NCBI GenBank assembly: GCA_003151795.1
Contig: PLYL01000006.1
Coordinates: forward strand, 1 to 54,300
Reading direction: 5' to 3'
Origin: Candidatus Yanofskybacteria bacterium
GTDB lineage: Bacteria; Patescibacteriota; Minisyncoccia; 2-02-FULL-40-12; GWA2-44-9
Length of the DNA: 54,300 nucleotides
The notes under the pieces were generated by a model. The model did not search any database and was not told where the DNA came from. It saw only the letters and a program-made list of their open reading frames with translations. Shown here piece after piece: positions 10,821 to 51,218 of the stretch (position 1 is the first letter of the stretch; each line of letters begins with the position of its first letter). The translations under genes were made by a program, and so were the position numbers.

Positions 10821-11654
10821 TTATACGATTAACAAAGCGATAACGTAACCAATCAGAGTCATTGTCGCAATCGGAGGCAAGGCCGCCATGGGCTGGCGTT
10901 TGGGCTGGCTGACGAAGATAACATGGGTCAGAAGCAAGCCCAGGAGCGCGAAGCACGCCACGATAATCGCCTCCGGCAATGATTGGCGGACCAAGGAGCT
11001 CACAAAAATTACGGGCAAACCAATATCGCCCGAACCGAGAATCATAAAATCTTGGCCGATGCGATGCTTGGCTTCATGGCGGGAGGCCATAAAGTGCCGA
11101 AAACTCGAAGGGATAATCAACCCGAACACGGCCCCGGAACGAATCATGCTCTCCGCCATCCGGACCATATGCCGGGTCTTATACACGGCGATGATATCGT
11201 AAAAAGACAGCAACACTAAAGCCAGGATGCCGACCGCCGGCGTAATCATGATGCCGATTGCGGCGCCGATGCCGGCAATGGCCAGAATAATCGCTAAATC
11301 GTGCACAATCACGTTATGGACTAGAAGAAAAATCGCCAGAATAAACAAAGCGCCGATAATATCGGTCGGGAATGGCGCCATCGAGGCAATCACAATCTGG
11401 GCGCCGGAGAGGATGATAATCGAGAGAAAAATCCAAAACATCCAGCTCGCTAGCCGAGGGGTCCGGCTAATGAACCAAACGGCGGCGAGGATGAAGGCAA
11501 ACCCGGCCAAGTCCCCGAGGGTGATGGAAGAGGGCTGATAAATTTCAACGCTCGAGAGCAGAAGCACATACCGATAGGCCACGAACAAACCCAGCGCGAG
11601 AGTCGCGCCGAACATCAACGCCTCTTTTAAAAAAAGACTTGGCTGGATTTTCAT
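10821..11654 (-). CDS. presenilin / signal-peptide-peptidase-like intramembrane aspartyl protease (A22-like)
   Basis: Polytopic protein with a YD motif (LLSFYDIIAVY), a GxGD motif (ILGSGDIGLP) and a PAL-like AALPP near the C-terminus. I set the start at ATG 11654 because the track extension is translation of the repeat arm. Confidence 0.6.
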   Translation of the reverse strand: MKIQPSLFLKEALMFGATLALGLFVAYRYVLLLSSVEIYQPSSITLGDLAGFAFILAAVWFISRTPRLASWMFWIFLSIIILSGAQIVIASMAPFPTDIIGALFILAIFLLVHNVIVHDLAIILAIAGIGAAIGIMITPAVGILALVLLSFYDIIAVYKTRHMVRMAESMIRSGAVFGLIIPSSFRHFMASRHEAKHRIGQDFMILGSGDIGLPVIFVSSLVRQSLPEAIIVACFALLGLLLTHVIFVSQPKRQPMAALPPIATMTLIGYVIALLIV

Positions 11655-11791
11655 CCCGCACATAACAAGCACCAACTGCTTAGGCAATACAAATGTTTGT
11701 ATTATCCAAGATTATCAGTGCTGCATGGTTAATATTATTTATATACAGACAGTGACATAATCGTATTGCAAGTGCTCGTTATGTGCGGGAT
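11653..11791 (-). repeat. type-1 palindromic intergenic element, copy 1 (139 nt)
   Basis: Arms 11653-11672 and 11772-11791 pair at 19/20 positions, with G.U at the exception in - sense. The element spans exactly from the stop TAA (11793-11791) to the ATG (11654-11652). Confidence 0.85.
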
Positions 11792-21413: not shown

Positions 21414-22478
21414 TTATTTAAATGGCGGGAGTTTGCTGTCGATGAGGAAGAGGACCAGGCCGATAATGGCGCCGATGGCGTTGATCATCCAGAAACGCAT
21501 GGTGATTTGGGTTTCGGGCCAGCCCATGGCTTCGAAGGTGTGGTGAATCGGCGTCGAAGGAAATATTTTCTTCTTCCGGATTTTTTTTGAAATAGTTTGG
21601 AGAATGACCGAGCCGGACTCCATCAAAGGAATAATGGCGATAATCGGCAAGAGCAATTCAGTATTCGTGAGCAACGCCACGACCCCGACCGTAAAACCCA
21701 GGGCCATCACACCGGTATCGCCCATGAAAAACTTGGCGGGATAAATATTGAACCACAGGAATCCAATCAGCGCGCCCATAATCGCAACGAGAAAAATCGT
21801 GAGATCAAAACGGCCCTGGTCAAACGCAATCGCGGCCAGCGCGCCAAAGATAGTGAGAAACACTCCGCCCGATAAACCATCGAGGCCGTCGGTTTCATTC
21901 ATTGAGAATGCTGTGGCAACCATAATAAAAATAAAATAAGGGATGTACCACCAACCAATCGTATATTCTCCCAGAAACGGCACCGTAATCGTCCGAATGT
22001 CGAGCTTAAAATAAAACCACCACGCGCCGATAGCCGCCACGCCAATAAAAAATAACAGGCGCTTGCTCAATTTTAGACCTCCGCGCTTTAAAACACCCAC
22101 CATGTCATCAGCCATGCCGACCAAGCCCGCGAGAATTAAAAAGCCCAATGGGAGCAAGGTCTGGCTTCGGGAAAGAAAATTAATCCGACCCCAGATACCG
22201 CCAAATAAAGTGGCGAGTAACCAGCACCCGAGAGTGATTATCGAAACGGTCAGCCAAATCGGCAAACCGCCCATCGTCGGGGTGCCTTCTTTTTTGCGAT
22301 GGAGACTATTAAAGATGGGTGTATCCGAGCGCTCAATGGCCTTGCCCGGTTTAAAGCGAGTGAACAAAACCTTAGTCCAGAAGTGGGTGATGATGAGATT
22401 TAAAAAGAAGGCCGTCGTGGCAATCACAAACAGCCGGACGACGTTAAATATATTGAGGCTTTCGAGAGGAATCGTCAT
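21414..22478 (-). CDS. mraY: phospho-N-acetylmuramoyl-pentapeptide transferase
   Basis: MGDTGVMALG, NETDGLDGL and other MraY motifs. Start at ATG 22478. Confidence 0.9.
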   Translation of the reverse strand: MTIPLESLNIFNVVRLFVIATTAFFLNLIITHFWTKVLFTRFKPGKAIERSDTPIFNSLHRKKEGTPTMGGLPIWLTVSIITLGCWLLATLFGGIWGRINFLSRSQTLLPLGFLILAGLVGMADDMVGVLKRGGLKLSKRLLFFIGVAAIGAWWFYFKLDIRTITVPFLGEYTIGWWYIPYFIFIMVATAFSMNETDGLDGLSGGVFLTIFGALAAIAFDQGRFDLTIFLVAIMGALIGFLWFNIYPAKFFMGDTGVMALGFTVGVVALLTNTELLLPIIAIIPLMESGSVILQTISKKIRKKKIFPSTPIHHTFEAMGWPETQITMRFWMINAIGAIIGLVLFLIDSKLPPFK

Positions 22479-22615
22479 CCCGCACATAACAAGCACCGAC
22501 TGCTTTAGCAATACGATTGTTCGTATTAACCAAGCTTATCAGTACTGTATGATTAATTATTATTAAATATGCATAGTCCCGCAGTAGTATTGCCAGTGCT
22601 TGTTATGTGCGGGAT
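22477..22615 (-). repeat. type-1 palindromic intergenic element, copy 2 (139 nt)
   Basis: Arms 22477-22496 and 22596-22615 are perfectly complementary (20/20). The element spans exactly from the stop TAA (22617-22615) to the mraY ATG (22478-22476). Confidence 0.9.
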
Positions 22616-28267: not shown

Positions 28268-29575
28268 TTAAACAGTTGGAATTCCGGCCGGGGCTTCGCC
28301 TTTCTTGGTTTCGATGCGGGGCAAGGATGGCGTCTTCACGCCGACGTCGGGCACATGAAATATGGTCGTCAATTCTTCGGTATTCAAAACCAAAGGCTTA
28401 TCGGGGAAGGCGCGTTCTCGATAGCGTTTATATATTTTTTTCTTATTTTTTAAGGCTCGAACGGCTTTATTGAAGCCCTTGGTGATATCAGTCGAAATGC
28501 CCGGCTTGAAACCATTGAGAGCCTGAGTGGCGAATTGTTTGAACGCGCCGGCGACACTGCGCATCCGACCGTCGTCATATTTATCGAGCGGAGCGATATA
28601 AACCATCCGAATGCCGGCTTCAAAGGCTAGTTTGGCCGTGCCTTTTTCAATTGTTTTAACTATCTCCTGAATGCCAGGGTTGAGTTGATTGAATGGTTTG
28701 TCTTCTTTCTTTTTTTCTTCCTTTTTATCTTTTGGTTCGGCCGGCTCATAAATCGCGCCGGCGACGGAGCGGGCGCCGCCCTCAATGCCGGCAAAGACCG
28801 AATCGGCAAAATTTGTCTTTTTCTTTTCTTCTCGGCCCATCAGCTTGTCCACGGCCGGCTGGCCCTTTTTAACCCAGGCGTCCCCGGTCGAGCGGGCCAA
28901 AATCTGGATTCCGAAAAATTCCGAGAGACCCAGCGCGCCCAAAGTCTCGGCAATCGGGGCCAAAGGGTCAATCCGGCGGACGTCGTCTTTACCGGCGCCT
29001 TCTTCCTCAAATTCCGGATAGGTCTTGATGGGGAAAATATCTTCTTTGATGAAGACCAATTCGAGGGCGTTGACATTGACCTCGCCGTAAGACAGCGCGG
29101 CCGGAAAACGCGACATGTAATCCGCCACTGGCGTTAATTCCGATTCGGGATATTGGGCGTAAACCTGGGCTTCGACCAAACTTTTATACTTCTCGATGGC
29201 TCGAATGTAAAAATGAATCTCTCCGCCCGAACCGACCATTTCCAGCGCGAGCCAGTCCGGCACCTTGCCTTTAAAGAAGGCGTCCCGCCATTTTTTATAT
29301 TTTTCCCAGAGATTTTTGGCGGGCGACGATTGCCCGACGACGTGAAAGCCGGCGAAAATCTGCTCCATCGCCTTTAAGCTCTTATGGGCGTCAATGGGAA
29401 TCTTGAGCTCATAAGTAATCCACTTCAATCCGGCCTTGTAGACTTTTTTATTGTATTCCTTAAGCGCTTCCGCGTAGACGAAAATGAGGATGATGGGCGC
29501 CCAAAGCCACCAGTAGGCAAACATGAAACCCAAAGCCGTCCAAGTCGAGCCCAGGGTGTTTAGGATTGGATCCAT
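28268..29575 (-). CDS. membrane-anchored hypothetical protein, operon partner of the ATPase
   Basis: 435 aa starting at ATG 29575, with an N-terminal TM segment and a KKEEKKKEDK linker. Its stop lies 2 nt before the ATPase start. Confidence 0.5.
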   Translation of the reverse strand: MDPILNTLGSTWTALGFMFAYWWLWAPIILIFVYAEALKEYNKKVYKAGLKWITYELKIPIDAHKSLKAMEQIFAGFHVVGQSSPAKNLWEKYKKWRDAFFKGKVPDWLALEMVGSGGEIHFYIRAIEKYKSLVEAQVYAQYPESELTPVADYMSRFPAALSYGEVNVNALELVFIKEDIFPIKTYPEFEEEGAGKDDVRRIDPLAPIAETLGALGLSEFFGIQILARSTGDAWVKKGQPAVDKLMGREEKKKTNFADSVFAGIEGGARSVAGAIYEPAEPKDKKEEKKKEDKPFNQLNPGIQEIVKTIEKGTAKLAFEAGIRMVYIAPLDKYDDGRMRSVAGAFKQFATQALNGFKPGISTDITKGFNKAVRALKNKKKIYKRYRERAFPDKPLVLNTEELTTIFHVPDVGVKTPSLPRIETKKGEAPAGIPTV

Positions 29576-29710
29576 CCCGCACTTAACGAGCATCTGGCTT
29601 CTAGTCTCGCTCATCGTCTATGACGATATGCGCGCCAATGCTTATTATATTATATACAATATCTGGATACGCCATCACTTTAGAGACTAATGCTCGCTTA
29701 AGTGCGGGAT
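29574..29710 (-). repeat. type-1 palindromic element, copy 3 (137 nt, diverged)
   Basis: Arms 29574-29593 and 29690-29710 pair with one bulge. A second stem is TAGTCTC (29602-29608) / GAGACTA (29683-29689). The element ends at the ATG (29575-29573). Confidence 0.8.
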
Positions 29711-44630: not shown

Positions 44631-44671
44631 GCCCGCAACAGAGTTGAACTCTGTTGCGGGCGTCGTTTTTT
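44631..44671. terminator. bidirectional terminator between ORF 44099-44629 and hpf
   Basis: GCCCGCAACAGAGT-TGA-ACTCTGTTGCGGGC, then GTCGTTTTTTA. Confidence 0.75.
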
Positions 44672-44996
44672 ATTTACTAGGCTTGCGAGACAAGTCTTTT
44701 TTCTTTTCTTTGAGCTTTTTGATTTGGAGATGGAGTTCGTCGCGAGCTTCGTCGATGGCGGTGCGGAGATCCTTGTGGGTCGCTTCGCCGCGCAAGAGCG
44801 CGCCGCCGACTTTTAGATTTACTTCGGCATAAAATACGGGACCAGAACGATGGCGGAGCGAAGGCTTGCCGATTTCCACACTCGCACTGACTGGGCCCTT
44901 CTGAATAAACCTCTCGAGACTGCCTATCTTCTGTTCCGTAAATACCCGCAACGGCGCGTCGAGGGTGATGTTTTTGGCGGTAATATTTATTTTCAT
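44670..44996 (-). CDS. hpf: ribosome hibernation promoting factor (short HPF/RaiA)
   Basis: MKINITAKNITLDAPLRVFTEQKIGSLERF... is typical of HPF. 108 aa. Confidence 0.85.
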   Translation of the reverse strand: MKINITAKNITLDAPLRVFTEQKIGSLERFIQKGPVSASVEIGKPSLRHRSGPVFYAEVNLKVGGALLRGEATHKDLRTAIDEARDELHLQIKKLKEKKKDLSRKPSK

Positions 44997-45066
44997 CCCG
45001 TTAGAAGTTGCCAGCCCGAGGCCCTGCGGACTGCACTCAAAGTGCAGGCTGGACTCTAAACGGGAC
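44995..45066 (-). repeat. type-2 start-codon-abutting hairpin element (72 nt)
   Basis: TCCCG/CGGGA and CCAGCC/GGCTGG stems enclose a CTGCAC-n5-GTGCAG hairpin. The element ends at the hpf ATG (44996-44994). Confidence 0.75.
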
Positions 45067-45107
45067 AGGTCGTATTTCCCTCATCATACCCCTCGTGTTT
45101 ATAAAAG

Positions 45108-45134
45108 AAAGAGGGACGCGGCGCGTCCCTCTTT
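45108..45134 (-). terminator. intrinsic terminator after the 21-codon ORF
   Basis: In - sense: AAAGAGGGACGCG / CGCGTCCCTCTTT, then CTTTTAT. Confidence 0.65.
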
Positions 45135-45142
45135 CGAACAAT

Positions 45143-45208
45143 CTATCTCTTTCTCTTCTTGGTTGCTTTCTTTTTGCCTTTTTTTGCGGCTTTGCGTTTC
45201 TTTGCCAT
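45143..45208 (-). CDS. 21-codon polybasic mini-ORF (speculative)
   Basis: ATG 45208 to TAG 45143 encodes MAKKRKAAKKGKKKATKKRKR. A strong terminator follows. No SD is visible. Confidence 0.25.
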   Translation of the reverse strand: MAKKRKAAKKGKKKATKKRKR

Positions 45209-45367
45209 AGATTTATTTTTGAAGACAATAATCTTTTTTGTAAAAAATTATTTTCCCCATCATTCCTTACGATTTTTAGAATAACAGTCGACCGTCTGTT
45301 TTCATTGCCTTAATTTTAAAACTAATAAAATAATTTTGATAATAAAAAAGTTGATAAGTCTAAAAAG

Positions 45368-48883: not shown

Positions 48884-51103
48884 CTACCAAGTTCGGCCGA
48901 GTTTCTGGACAAAGAGTTTGGCGTCGGCTTCAAAGCTAGGATCGATTTGGGCGGTAATGTGCGCTTGGGCGATAGCATCGTCAATCCGGCCGACGCTGGC
49001 GTAAGCAGCCGCCAAAGAAGCGTGGTACTGGGGGCTGTTGGGAACTAATTTGACTAATCCTTCATATACTGTCACGAGGTGCTGGAAATCGTTGCGCTTG
49101 ATATAAATGTTGGCAAGATTTAGATAATCGTTCTCGGCTAATGTGTATCCTTTCTTAATTGCTTCATCCATGTTAACCAAGGCTTTGTCGGTCTCGCCGG
49201 CTTGCATCTCAACGGCACCGAGATACCAATATGAAATACCGACATCGGGATTAAGGTCAACCGCTTTCTGGAAGGCGACTTCAGCCTTCGGATAATCCTT
49301 TTTGTTAAGATAGGCCTGGCCGACTTCATAATAGGTGCGGACGAATGTCGGCGAATAACTCAACGCCTTTGTGGAATGCTTCAAGGCCTCGTCATTATAC
49401 GGCGAATTAGGGTCTGATTTGCCAAGAATAATGTTTAAGCGGGATAGGTATAGCTCCGGCAAATAATCTTCAGTGTTCTCCGCCGCATTTTTTTCTTCCA
49501 AAGCAATAATTTCTTTAAAAATATCGGCTACTTCCGGCGTTATTTTATTACTATTACTATAGTCCAGCAGGAACTGGGCAAATTGGTTTCGATATTCATA
49601 TCGGCCATTTCCGTCGAAGGAAACGGCATCCCGGTAAGACGCGACCGCGGCGGTGAAATCATTGTTGTAGCCCGCGATAATGCCTCGGGTCGTGGCGTAA
49701 TTGGCAATGGCCGTCCGAACATTCGTCTGATACGCCAAATAAACGGCGCCGACGATAACGATAGCACCAAGCACGAACGTTAATCCTCCGGAAACCGGCC
49801 GGCCCGTTTTTGTTTCAATTCTCGGAGATTCCGGCCGGTTCAAAAACGAAATGTAGCCCAAGGCGCTGAAGAAGACCAGAAAATTCGCCGAAGTGTCGAA
49901 TATAAACGCGTTGTGAATTATATACGCGATGACCATGGAGATAAGGCCAATGGCCGGAACGCGGAATCCAGGCTTATTTTTTAAACGCCACAGCGCCCGG
50001 AATATCACGCCAAATAACGCTAGGTAGGCCAGAAACCCAAGCAGGCCCATCGTGACGAGAATTTCGACAAACATGTTGTGAGCTCGGTCAAACATGGTTT
50101 CTGAACTGGGGCCATTAAAGAATTTGGGATTGAAATATTTTGAAAACGGAATATTAAAATTTTCCGGGCCCCAGCCGAAAATAATTCTTTGGGGGCTCTC
50201 GCTCCAGCCTTTCAAACCGGCTTGCCAAGCCCAGAACCGGGTTTGGACGGTATAACTGGAGAGGGAAAGATCGGTCACCCGGCGCAAATATTGGGAGTTT
50301 TGAACAATTGCGCTATTTTTGAAAGCAAAAGCAAACCCGACGAACAGCACAACAAAGACCAGCATGGAAATCAAGACTTTTTTAGCCAGTTTTGAATTGG
50401 TTTGGGCAAAATACAAAAAAACAAAAACAAGAAAACCAATGCTTATTCCCAAAATAGAACCGCGGACCACAGTCATAAATACCGCCAGACTCATAACGGC
50501 CGCGGAAATTAGGAAAAAATTACGCTTGCTCTTTACGGCAGCCCCGAATCCTAGAATCAGCGCCAAGAAAACATTCAGAATCTGATAGCCGGCGAAAAGA
50601 GCCGGATTGCCAATCGTGCCGAAAATACGCTCCCGACCGCCGGAACCGATAAAGAAAGCTATATTAGTTCGTTGGCCAAATCCATACAGCGCCGAGAGCA
50701 CGCCGACGCCCACTGTAATTTCTAAGAACCTGAACCAGTCGTCTTTGGTTCGAAGAACCGAAGTTAGGATGATATAAAAGATGAAATAGTGCCAGAAGCT
50801 ATAGAGGCCACCCATGCGTTCAAGGGTGCCCCAGAAACTCTGATAGACATTTATACTCGTAAACGTCGTGACAGTGAAGGCGAGCGTGAAACTAAGAAAA
50901 GCCCAAAAGAAGATGTCGCGCCGAGGTAAAAAGGACCGATCCTGCCAGATTAAGACCAGGTAGAGAGCCAGCATAATCTCAACTAGACTTCTAAAGAGAA
51001 CTATTTTCCCAAAATGAAACGGCGAAATATACTGTGAAAAAATAACCAGCGGCATAAACGCGGCCGCGTAGACGCAATACTTCAATATTTTGTGGATATT
51101 CAT
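48884..51103 (-). CDS. O-antigen-ligase-like polytopic membrane protein fused to C-terminal TPR repeats
   Basis: 739 aa. The N-terminal roughly 440 aa are multi-TM and Wzy_C-like. The C-terminal part has TPR-like repeats (AYLNKKDYPKAEVAFQKAVDLNP and others). Confidence 0.7.
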   Translation of the reverse strand: MNIHKILKYCVYAAAFMPLVIFSQYISPFHFGKIVLFRSLVEIMLALYLVLIWQDRSFLPRRDIFFWAFLSFTLAFTVTTFTSINVYQSFWGTLERMGGLYSFWHYFIFYIILTSVLRTKDDWFRFLEITVGVGVLSALYGFGQRTNIAFFIGSGGRERIFGTIGNPALFAGYQILNVFLALILGFGAAVKSKRNFFLISAAVMSLAVFMTVVRGSILGISIGFLVFVFLYFAQTNSKLAKKVLISMLVFVVLFVGFAFAFKNSAIVQNSQYLRRVTDLSLSSYTVQTRFWAWQAGLKGWSESPQRIIFGWGPENFNIPFSKYFNPKFFNGPSSETMFDRAHNMFVEILVTMGLLGFLAYLALFGVIFRALWRLKNKPGFRVPAIGLISMVIAYIIHNAFIFDTSANFLVFFSALGYISFLNRPESPRIETKTGRPVSGGLTFVLGAIVIVGAVYLAYQTNVRTAIANYATTRGIIAGYNNDFTAAVASYRDAVSFDGNGRYEYRNQFAQFLLDYSNSNKITPEVADIFKEIIALEEKNAAENTEDYLPELYLSRLNIILGKSDPNSPYNDEALKHSTKALSYSPTFVRTYYEVGQAYLNKKDYPKAEVAFQKAVDLNPDVGISYWYLGAVEMQAGETDKALVNMDEAIKKGYTLAENDYLNLANIYIKRNDFQHLVTVYEGLVKLVPNSPQYHASLAAAYASVGRIDDAIAQAHITAQIDPSFEADAKLFVQKLGRTW

Positions 51104-51179
51104 CCCGTTAGAAGTAGCCCCGCCAAGGTCCTCCGGACTCGTCCAGCCTTCGGCGGACGAGCGAGACTTCTAACGGGAT
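51102..51179 (-). repeat. type-2 start-codon-abutting hairpin element (78 nt)
   Basis: ATCCCGTTAGAAGT (51102-51115) is perfectly complementary to ACTTCTAACGGGAT (51166-51179). The element ends at the ATG (51103-51101). Confidence 0.8.
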
Positions 51180-51190
51180 TCATTGATTAT

Positions 51191-51218
51191 ATTCTACGCT
51201 CTTCAACGGCGGGGTCAA
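51191..51218 (-). promoter_or_regulatory. promoter immediately upstream of the type-2 element
   Basis: In - sense: TTGACC, 16-nt spacer, TAGAAT. The predicted start site is only a few nt before the 5' arm. Confidence 0.5.

Follow-up and report, generated by a model that had tools for sequence, protein, structure and literature searches.

The raiA motif is a cis-regulatory RNA that lies upstream of raiA/hpf genes. Among small repeats of bacterial DNA, Correia elements duplicate TA, and IS200/IS605 elements and REPs make no target duplication. The Correia/NEMIS elements of Neisseria and the ERIC, RUP and BOX elements are transcribed together with adjacent genes, form hairpins within the mRNA and may alter its processing or stability (PMC10969869). 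The Rickettsia palindromic elements (RPEs; Ogata et al. 2000) are described as small palindromes that sit in frame in unrelated, often essential genes and are translated (PMC10969869). The stretch analyzed here (the window) comprises 54,300 nt of contig PLYL01000006.1 from a Candidatus Yanofskybacteria bacterium (Patescibacteriota), a peat-metagenome contig from ENA, in which a hairpin-forming element, E1, stands directly before the start codon of hpf (raiA). An earlier note had described this hairpin and a sister copy, E2, as one hairpin element that ends exactly at start codons. [quoted passage not shown]

The minus-strand sequence at 45066-44994 agrees with the one given by the earlier note, and an ATG (44996-44994) follows the hairpin directly. 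This ATG is the start of hpf, because the open reading frame (ORF) that it heads matches Pfam Ribosomal_S30AE (PF02482) from residue 3 (E 4.5e-18) and carries the N-terminus MKINIT common to HPF homologues of Candidatus Yanofskybacteria and other Patescibacteria. E1 is a slightly degenerate member of its family, with the 5' arm GTTTAGAGT in place of GTTAGAAGT. The second copy that the note had placed before an envelope-protein gene is real and is the same element as E1: the exact 15-mer ACTTCTAACGGGATG is common to both, and the two share a 44-nt repeat with 82% identity. The structure claimed for the pair was also borne out, each copy folding as an outer helix around two small hairpins better than shuffled sequences do (E1, -34.9 kcal/mol, z -3.4; E2, -45.2 kcal/mol, z -5.1).

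E1 and E2 are insertions, because both sites are element-free in the closest relatives. The region upstream of hpf lacks the element in the syntenic loci L003, L005, L006 and L007/L010, where HPF is 80-87% identical and the leader is ∼20-35 nt, and the start of the Wzy_C gene that hosts E2 is, in L005 and L006, a single ATGAAT shortly after a -10-like box. A scan of genome contigs with HPF matched three loci. In the distant relative L002 (9892-10001), a different, 110-nt member of the superfamily described below stands at the hpf ATGAA, with covarying arms GUACG/CGUAC and, upstream of it, TATAAT followed after 7 nt by ATGAAT; the hpf start codon has therefore been struck at least two times independently. 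The copies of L044/L122 and of L035/L042 look like independent insertions at orthologous starts. The earlier note had held that the element is not a gene-specific riboswitch, and this view stands, given the unrelated host genes and the four hpf orthologues without the element. Since the hpf "leader" is a mobile-element copy, regulation of hpf should not be inferred from it.

A metagenome scan with the pattern GTCCGNAGGNCCTNGGN{5,9}ACTTCNNACGGG gave at least 120 matching stretches, mostly from groundwater and aquifer assemblies, which represent 106 unique sites; the figures for these sites hold among the matches listed. The pattern fixes 23 positions of the element and so selects the set of copies, gene starts in the loci were called crudely, and the taxonomy of most of the metagenome loci is inferred. 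The consensus of the 106 sites is TCCCGTTAGAAGTCTCGCTCGCGCCAAAGGCGCGAGTCCGNAGGACCTCGGCGRGGCTACTTCTAACGGGA. The core measures 68-74 nt in 105 of the 106 copies (∼71 nt for the element) and is bounded by 13-bp terminal inverted repeats, TCCCGTTAGAAGT...ACTTCTAACGGGA, whose 12-nt arms are perfectly complementary in 91 copies. The outermost pair, T/A in 92 copies and C/G in 14, is complementary every time and is therefore part of the element. Just beyond this pair, four bases form a direct repeat, perfectly at 67 of the 106 sites and with a per-position identity of 0.75-0.85 as against 0-0.57 in shifted registers, from which it follows that the target is T-N-N-A and that 4 bp are duplicated. The main duplicated targets are TGAA (28), TGGA (11), TCAA (7), TAAA (4), TGTA (3), TCCA (3) and TTGA (3). 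Copy number per locus is two in the window and two to four in several other loci. Of the marks by which MITEs are recognized, small size, inverted repeats, a target duplication of fixed length, dispersed copies and presence/absence polymorphism are thus found in this family, the exception being a cognate autonomous IS (see below). E1, whose left target copy has decayed (CCTG, versus TGAA on the right), is in all likelihood an old, slightly degenerate copy of a non-autonomous, MITE-like and RPE-like mobile element of ∼71 nt, which would have been transposed at the DNA level by a putative transposase.

A covariance model (R1) built from 45 diverse copies scored E1 at 57.9 bits (E 2.4e-11) and E2 at 84.6 bits (E 7e-18) on the minus strand, as opposed to only 18.9 and 27.4 bits, respectively, on the plus strand. 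As a single strand, the copies fold as a three-way junction: P1 forms the outer helix, P2 is a short helix, and of the two hairpins A is variable and B (GUCCGNAGGAC) conserved. Across the 45 copies, 96.8% of cells are paired, compared with 88% for shuffles and ∼40% for slid controls; at 10 pairs both partners vary. Covariation is seen in P1 (7-70 UA/AU, 8-69 AU/CG, 1-76 UA/CG), in P2 (16-58 CG/AU, together with CCAGCC/GGCUGG in E1 and L081) and at four pairs of hairpin A, each of which occurs as several pair types. The U.G pair that the earlier note saw in place of U-A in the GUCC/GGRC mini-helix is correctly described (pair 42-50: UA in 43 copies, UG in 2), and the mini-helix is backed by copies outside the pattern that read GUCU/AGAC, GUCCC/GGGAC or GGUC/GACC. 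Two arrangements of the junction, a 5-bp P2 with GUCC/GGAC or a 3-bp P2 with CCG/YGG, perform equally on the pattern-selected set; the outside copies favor GUCC/GGAC. G.U pairs far exceed A.C mismatches, with G17.U42 present in 99 of 101 copies, and the sense strand is therefore the folding strand.

The copies are concentrated at start codons. ATG follows directly after 67 of the 106 copies and GTG after 3, most of these 70 codons heading long ORFs, and the start-codon copies lie in the sense orientation at a ratio of ∼9:1, the reverse orientation being seen at a start in only ∼6-8 copies. Eight of 11 further copies, found with the covariance model and not with the pattern, are likewise at ATG or GTG starts. 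The wide search that the earlier note had proposed, with copies lying mostly away from start codons or on the non-transcribed strand named as the adverse outcome, thus places the element mostly at starts and on the transcribed strand.

In the mechanism that we propose, the element would insert into a T-N-N-A target and 4 bp would be duplicated. When the target is the TG(A/G)A made up by a start codon and the two bases after it, the old ATG would stay to the left of the element, and the terminal A of the element plus the duplicated TG would give a new ATG joined to the coding sequence. It is because of this insertion geometry that the element abuts the ATG exactly. The host gene could then be expressed by two routes: read-through from the old ATG, for which the canonical insert offers 25 codons open in one frame, or a start at the rebuilt ATG, whether by initiation or by re-initiation. 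As no old ATG is left beside the element at hpf, this gene would depend on the second route. Both ATGs are present at 52 copies, 32 of which are open in frame and could encode a 25-residue N-terminal extension; the other 20 contain a stop (12) or a frameshift (8). A left ATG is missing at 18 further start-codon copies, E1 and that of L081 among them. Initiation at the rebuilt AUG is therefore required in at least 38 of the 70 copies, and the ribosome would presumably start directly 3' of a hairpin of ∼-40 kcal/mol that has no Shine-Dalgarno (SD) sequence. An N-terminal coding extension as the general rule was rejected on the same counts of stops, frameshifts and missing left ATGs.

The earlier note had drawn attention to the lack of an SD at either ATG. 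None is adjacent to the ATG of E1 or E2, and to this extent the remark stands; as a property of the element it does not, the absence being genome-wide. SD-like motifs precede only 4 of 43 called genes in the window, 3 of 48 in the relatives and 84 of 523 in the metagenome loci. A -10-like TAnnnT hexamer lies 4-9 nt before the ATG in 23% of genes, versus 11% in a shifted control, which suggests that leaderless or near-leaderless mRNAs are frequent in these genomes. Targeting of leaderless transcription starts was considered but gained no support, as such a box is found at 17 of 68 start copies and in 12 of 68 shifted controls, no more than at genes generally. The boxes at leaderless spacing, the promoter of E2 among them, would also suit an RNA-processing "punctuation" signal, in which an endonuclease cuts at the 3' end of the junction and leaves a leaderless mRNA that begins with the AUG. 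Such a signal would fit the precise end of the element, which in 70 copies coincides with the first base of an ATG or GTG, and would tolerate the stops and frameshifts between the two ATGs, and cleavage by RNase III at the inverted repeats of a MITE is documented for Correia elements (PMC10969869). Against it, the first base of the start codon (A or G, position 76) pairs with position 1 in every case, so that the cut would fall inside a helix, and in the copies inside SecA, PolA and other genes (see below) one frame is kept open, as if an uncut mRNA were translated throughout. The Rfam comparison gave no match at E <= 10 to RNase P/tRNA-like RNAs or to ribozymes, including the hammerhead, twister, pistol, hatchet and HDV-like self-cleaving types. 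We consider a punctuation signal improbable.

The copies away from starts lie either between genes or inside them. About 15 copies are located inside long sense-strand ORFs, as defined after in silico excision of the copy and one duplication. Fourteen of them are read in one frame, PVRSLARAKGASP[EKQ]DLGEATSNG, none contains a stop, and the N=T variant, which would give TAG and is common elsewhere, is absent from the internal sense copies. The host genes identified by Pfam encode SecA, PolA, UvrC, RecR (Toprim), MurG and RNase J, the copy lying inside SecA_SW in SecA and inside the RNase H domain in UvrC; one more ORF, which we take from its sequence alone to be NAD synthetase, also carries an internal copy. 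The canonical insert adds 69 + 2 + 4 = 75 nt, or 25 codons, and copies with lengths not divisible by three (68, 73 or 74 nt) are all at start codons and never internal. The encoded peptide is short, and a search with a tandem query matched only 9 small proteins. That the internal copies are open in a single frame argues that they are translated and not spliced or bypassed. The same facts bear on removal or skipping at the RNA level, by which the element would be a mini-intron or a bypass element with the duplicated codons as take-off and landing sites. Direct repeats of the form ATGAAT...ATGAAT around a stable hairpin, and the 12 stops and 8 frameshifts among the 52 copies with both ATGs, are what such a device would predict; one open frame in 14 of 15 internal copies, never with TAG, makes sense only under translation, lengths that break the frame are confined to starts, and neither an intron-like core nor an Rfam match is present. 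Removal or skipping is accordingly very hard to credit.

Inserted copies are maintained. E1 and the copy of L081, a locus whose HPF is 83% identical to that of the window, are orthologous, as they share the gene, the odd left flank CCTGT and the sub-type. Between them the element is 93% identical (89% over the half that the pattern leaves free), compared with 77% for hpf, 50% for its third codon positions and 60% for the upstream sequence. In other orthologous pairs the element is 84-99% identical and third codon positions 39-66%, figures to be read with the 88.6% identity already shown by random pairs of copies and with the fact that some orthologous pairs are independent insertions of different sub-types. 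In L076, L106 and L123 the left target copy decays (ATGGAT, ACGTAT and ATGAAT), and the right ATGGAT is kept together with the element; in L123, hairpin A carries a compensatory double change from GCGAC/GUCGC to GCAAC/GUUGC. Mismatches at the target-duplication positions reach 19% per site, whereas 5'-arm columns outside the pattern diverge by at most 4%. Covariance-model scores are bimodal, and there are almost no decayed copies. Taken together, orthologous copies show ∼90-97% identity at a third-position identity of ∼50%. Inserted copies are thus conserved far beyond the neutral expectation, and we conclude that their fold is under purifying selection. Most plausibly the fold is kept since it would leave the GC-rich insert folded on itself and the AUG and A-rich coding start accessible.

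This constraint, together with the clustering at starts, bears on a rival reading, in which the element is a dedicated, SD-independent translation-start module whose junction presents the AUG at the base of P1 and whose mobility is its means of spread; in variants of it, the AUG is held beside the 5' end of the mRNA, or the AGGA of hairpin B is offered to the ribosome. The share and orientation of copies at starts, the at least 38 rebuilt ATGs that must initiate, the loss of left ATGs where right ATG and element are conserved, a start-codon enrichment ∼40-fold over the tolerated-site null, and the folding of the sense strand indicated by G17.U42 are all in its favor. However, the in-frame copies in essential genes and the intergenic copies are conserved equally well, the closest relatives do without the element in expressing hpf and the Wzy_C gene, the rarity of SDs in these genomes means that their absence needs no special device, and the AGGA stands at the distal end of a helix of ∼18 bp, ∼28-31 nt upstream of the AUG. 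The N=T change, with its in-frame TAG, is not depleted at start-codon copies, which is neutral here. A dedicated start module thus seems to us unlikely, and the claim that the element is primarily a translation-start RNA motif could not be upheld: the copies in the window are insertions, they have inverted repeats and a 4-bp duplication, and ∼15 copies lie in frame within genes and others between genes. The RNA fold may nonetheless have a secondary role in the expression of the downstream gene.

Several observations weigh against a simple mobile element. TNNA sites at called gene starts make up ∼1.8% of start plus intergenic TNNA sites in the same loci, so that the share of copies at start codons (∼66%) is ∼40-fold above the expectation for tolerated sites, and selection alone may not suffice to produce this excess. 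The 9:1 sense bias is not explained by inverted repeats that are symmetric. A purely selfish MITE would not usually be conserved so strongly after insertion, which hints at a function. No transposase with matching inverted repeats was found among repeat pairs 0.4-3.5 kb apart in 1.03 Mb of loci, in which the longer inverted-repeat pairs were chance matches around ordinary genes or pairs of separate small elements. In the 106-copy set, hairpin B and the 3' arm are invariant because the pattern fixes 23 positions, and the RNA runs of the same peat study contained nothing from this organism. Of two candidate causes of the orientation bias, RNA stability (-40.2 kcal/mol for the sense and -39.2 kcal/mol for the antisense strand) was rejected, and the direction of replication or of the gene strand gained no support, since antisense copies occur in loci with all genes running the other way. 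On a further reading, the family would be a mobile element that actively targets start codons and carries a portable, conserved RNA device, by which the downstream gene could be translated from the rebuilt AUG in the absence of an SD. This device would be either a junction that sets the AUG at its base beside the mRNA 5' end or a processing signal that makes leaderless mRNAs, selected in hundreds of Patescibacteria genes; we regard this as possible, with the chances against it. The MITE-like, RPE-like element set out above remains our preferred reading.

At E2, the ORF from the old ATG (51183) runs through the element for 27 codons (51101-51183, minus strand), and its TGA stop overlaps the rebuilt ATG (ATGA). 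The same geometry is found in L111 and L127. With this AUGA overlap, and an old AUG that is probably 5'-terminal, termination-reinitiation would be geometrically favored at E2. The stored gene call for the Wzy_C/TPR protein (L001:3446, corresponding to ∼50974 in the window) begins 43 codons downstream of the conserved ATGAAT start, giving 696 instead of 739 amino acids, and the calls of L007 and L010 disagree with each other; gene callers seem to have difficulty with starts in this lineage. One contig of DNA run X1, from the same peat sample, matches only the 3' half of E2 (51102-51141), with unrelated sequence on both sides, and is apparently a further copy at another locus of the peat community, opposite in orientation relative to the adjacent ATGAA. 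Coordinates of these and the other features are collected in Table 1.

Table 1. Features of the window connected with the palindromic elements (positions in the 54,300-nt stretch).
Feature	Position	Strand	Remarks
Element copy E1	44996..45065	-	70 nt; terminal T at 45065, terminal A at 44996 is the A of the hpf ATG; based on sequence, fold, covariance model and the orthologous copy in L081
Left terminal inverted repeat of E1 (5' arm of outer helix P1), TCCCGTTTAGAGT	45053..45065	-	
Right terminal inverted repeat of E1 (3' arm of outer helix P1), ACTTCTAACGGGA	44996..45008	-	Last base is the A of ATG
E1 hairpin A, TGCAC-TTTGA-GTGCA	45032..45046	-	Variable hairpin; covaries across the family
E1 hairpin B, GTCC-GCA-GGGC	45021..45031	-	Conserved block with the U.G pair
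hpf/raiA, host of E1	44670..44996	-	108 aa; Pfam PF02482 and homologues; start codon completed by the last base of the element
Short upstream ORF, ATGATGAGG...TGA	45037..45087	-	16 codons plus stop; enters E1 and ends in the loop of hairpin A; translation predicted only
Terminator-like hairpin of the upstream small basic ORF	45107..45135	-	5' boundary of the hpf leader
Element copy E2	51103..51178	-	76 nt, with long hairpin A; ends with the A of the Wzy_C/TPR ATG
Wzy_C/TPR membrane protein gene, host of E2	48884..51103	-	L005 and L006 share the conserved N-terminus
Left copy of the duplicated target at E2, old ATGAA	51179..51183	-	TGAA duplication at 51179-51182; right TGAA at 51099-51102
Promoter-like TTGACC-16-TAGAAT	51191..51218	-	7 nt between the end of the -10 box and the old (left) ATG, as spaced at a leaderless start
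Type-1 palindromic element	11654..11790	-	137 nt; TCCCG...CGGGA termini; preceded by the stop TAA of one gene and followed by the ATG of the signal-peptide-peptidase gene
Type-1 element, second copy	22478..22614	-	Preceded by a stop TAA and followed by the ATG of a Glycos_transf_4 gene
Type-1 element, third copy	29575..29709	-	Perfect TGGA duplication (ATGGA|T...A|TGGATCC) at a gene start

The first part of the short ORF that enters E1 is homologous to the hpf leader of the relative L003. Just upstream of hpf, a very basic 21-codon ORF, MAKKRKAAKKGKKKATKKRKR (45144-45209, minus strand), is followed by a strong terminator and is conserved in all relatives. Farther upstream, to ∼45340, extends a conserved AT-rich block that contains TTATCCAC/TTATCAAC (DnaA-box-like) and a conserved hairpin.

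E1 and E2 belong to a larger superfamily. The three type-1 copies of the window measure 135-137 nt, have 20-nt inverted repeats (ATCCCGCACATAACAAGCAC) and each end at the ATG of a minus-strand gene. Palindromic elements of 50-137 nt, in the size classes ∼50-67, 95-125 and 133-137 nt, have in common [T/C]CCCG...CGGG[A/G] termini and 4-bp TNNA duplications. Their arms vary (GTTAGAGAT, GCCGTTGAA, GCACTCAAT), and many of them stand at ATGAA sites (L002-L128; for example L016:9026-9138, L025:1265-1379 and L084:1103-1235). L108:1136-1267 is a nested insertion, in which a short related element (arms TCCCGTTAGAGGT) lies inside hairpin A of an element of the E1/E2 type (type 2) and is flanked by a CGCG duplication. 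In L027 (1966-2258), copies form tandem clusters. Rfam 15 gave only a tRNA at the gathering threshold and, for E1 and E2, nothing relevant at E <= 10; viral contigs contained no match to the element pattern, and in the full-text literature we found no paper that links MITEs or these sequences to Patescibacteria. The family appears to be previously undescribed.

Among contigs of the lineage from groundwater and peat, the family is abundant. Its insertions at start codons and in frame affect gene calling, and it can add segments of 25 residues to the proteins of organisms with minimal genomes. A simple selfish-DNA model leaves its conservation, its sense bias and the ∼40-fold excess at start codons unexplained, and through these three features translation initiation in SD-poor, uncultivated bacteria becomes open to direct testing.

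Among described systems, RPEs offer a close parallel, with in-frame insertion in unrelated and often essential genes, a conserved encoded peptide and reduced host genomes. The present element is smaller (∼71 nt, as opposed to ∼100-150 nt for RPEs) and resides in Patescibacteria, so that homology is not expected from taxon and size. It also differs from RPEs in its clear 13-bp inverted repeats, its 4-bp duplication and its covarying three-way junction, and in that two thirds of its copies lie at start codons where the ATG is rebuilt; we know of no report of RPEs rebuilding a start-codon ATG. With the MITEs of the Correia/NEMIS, ERIC, RUP and BOX type it has in common that it is non-autonomous and has inverted repeats and target duplications. 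Correia elements, in contrast, are mostly intergenic, and the inserted copies of the present element are far more conserved and have no known cognate IS. To our knowledge, no Correia/NEMIS, ERIC, RUP or BOX element targets or regenerates start codons.

Other known hairpin-forming DNA repeats were also compared, namely palindrome-associated elements (PATEs) derived from IS200/IS605, REP/RAYT and integron attC sites. The palindromic, structured character of the element and its apparently strand-specific fold would be expected of such a repeat. It has, however, a 4-bp target duplication and full 13-bp terminal inverted repeats, unlike the subterminal hairpins of PATEs and REP/RAYT, and its core-site order, GTTAGAA...TTCTAAC, is the reverse of that of attC (RYYYAAC...GTTRRRY, located at cassette 3' ends in arrays beside intI), with copies dispersed at gene starts and not arranged in cassettes. 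Identity with any of these is extremely unlikely.

Like riboswitches and the raiA motif, the element is a covarying structured RNA directly upstream of an hpf/raiA start; unlike such leaders, it is not bound to a gene family, is absent from the closest hpf orthologues, occurs also in coding regions, is flanked by target duplications and has no Rfam family. Two further likenesses are analogies of mechanism only. The byps of Magnusiomyces mitochondria and T4 gene 60 likewise place a hairpin insert between identical codons, but the internal copies of the present element are open in one frame and would be translated, not bypassed; and mitochondrial tRNA punctuation likewise sets a compact RNA against the first AUG of a leaderless mRNA. 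What is new in comparison with described MITEs is insertion at start codons with regeneration of the ATG, an interior that folds as a covarying three-way junction, and strong conservation after insertion.

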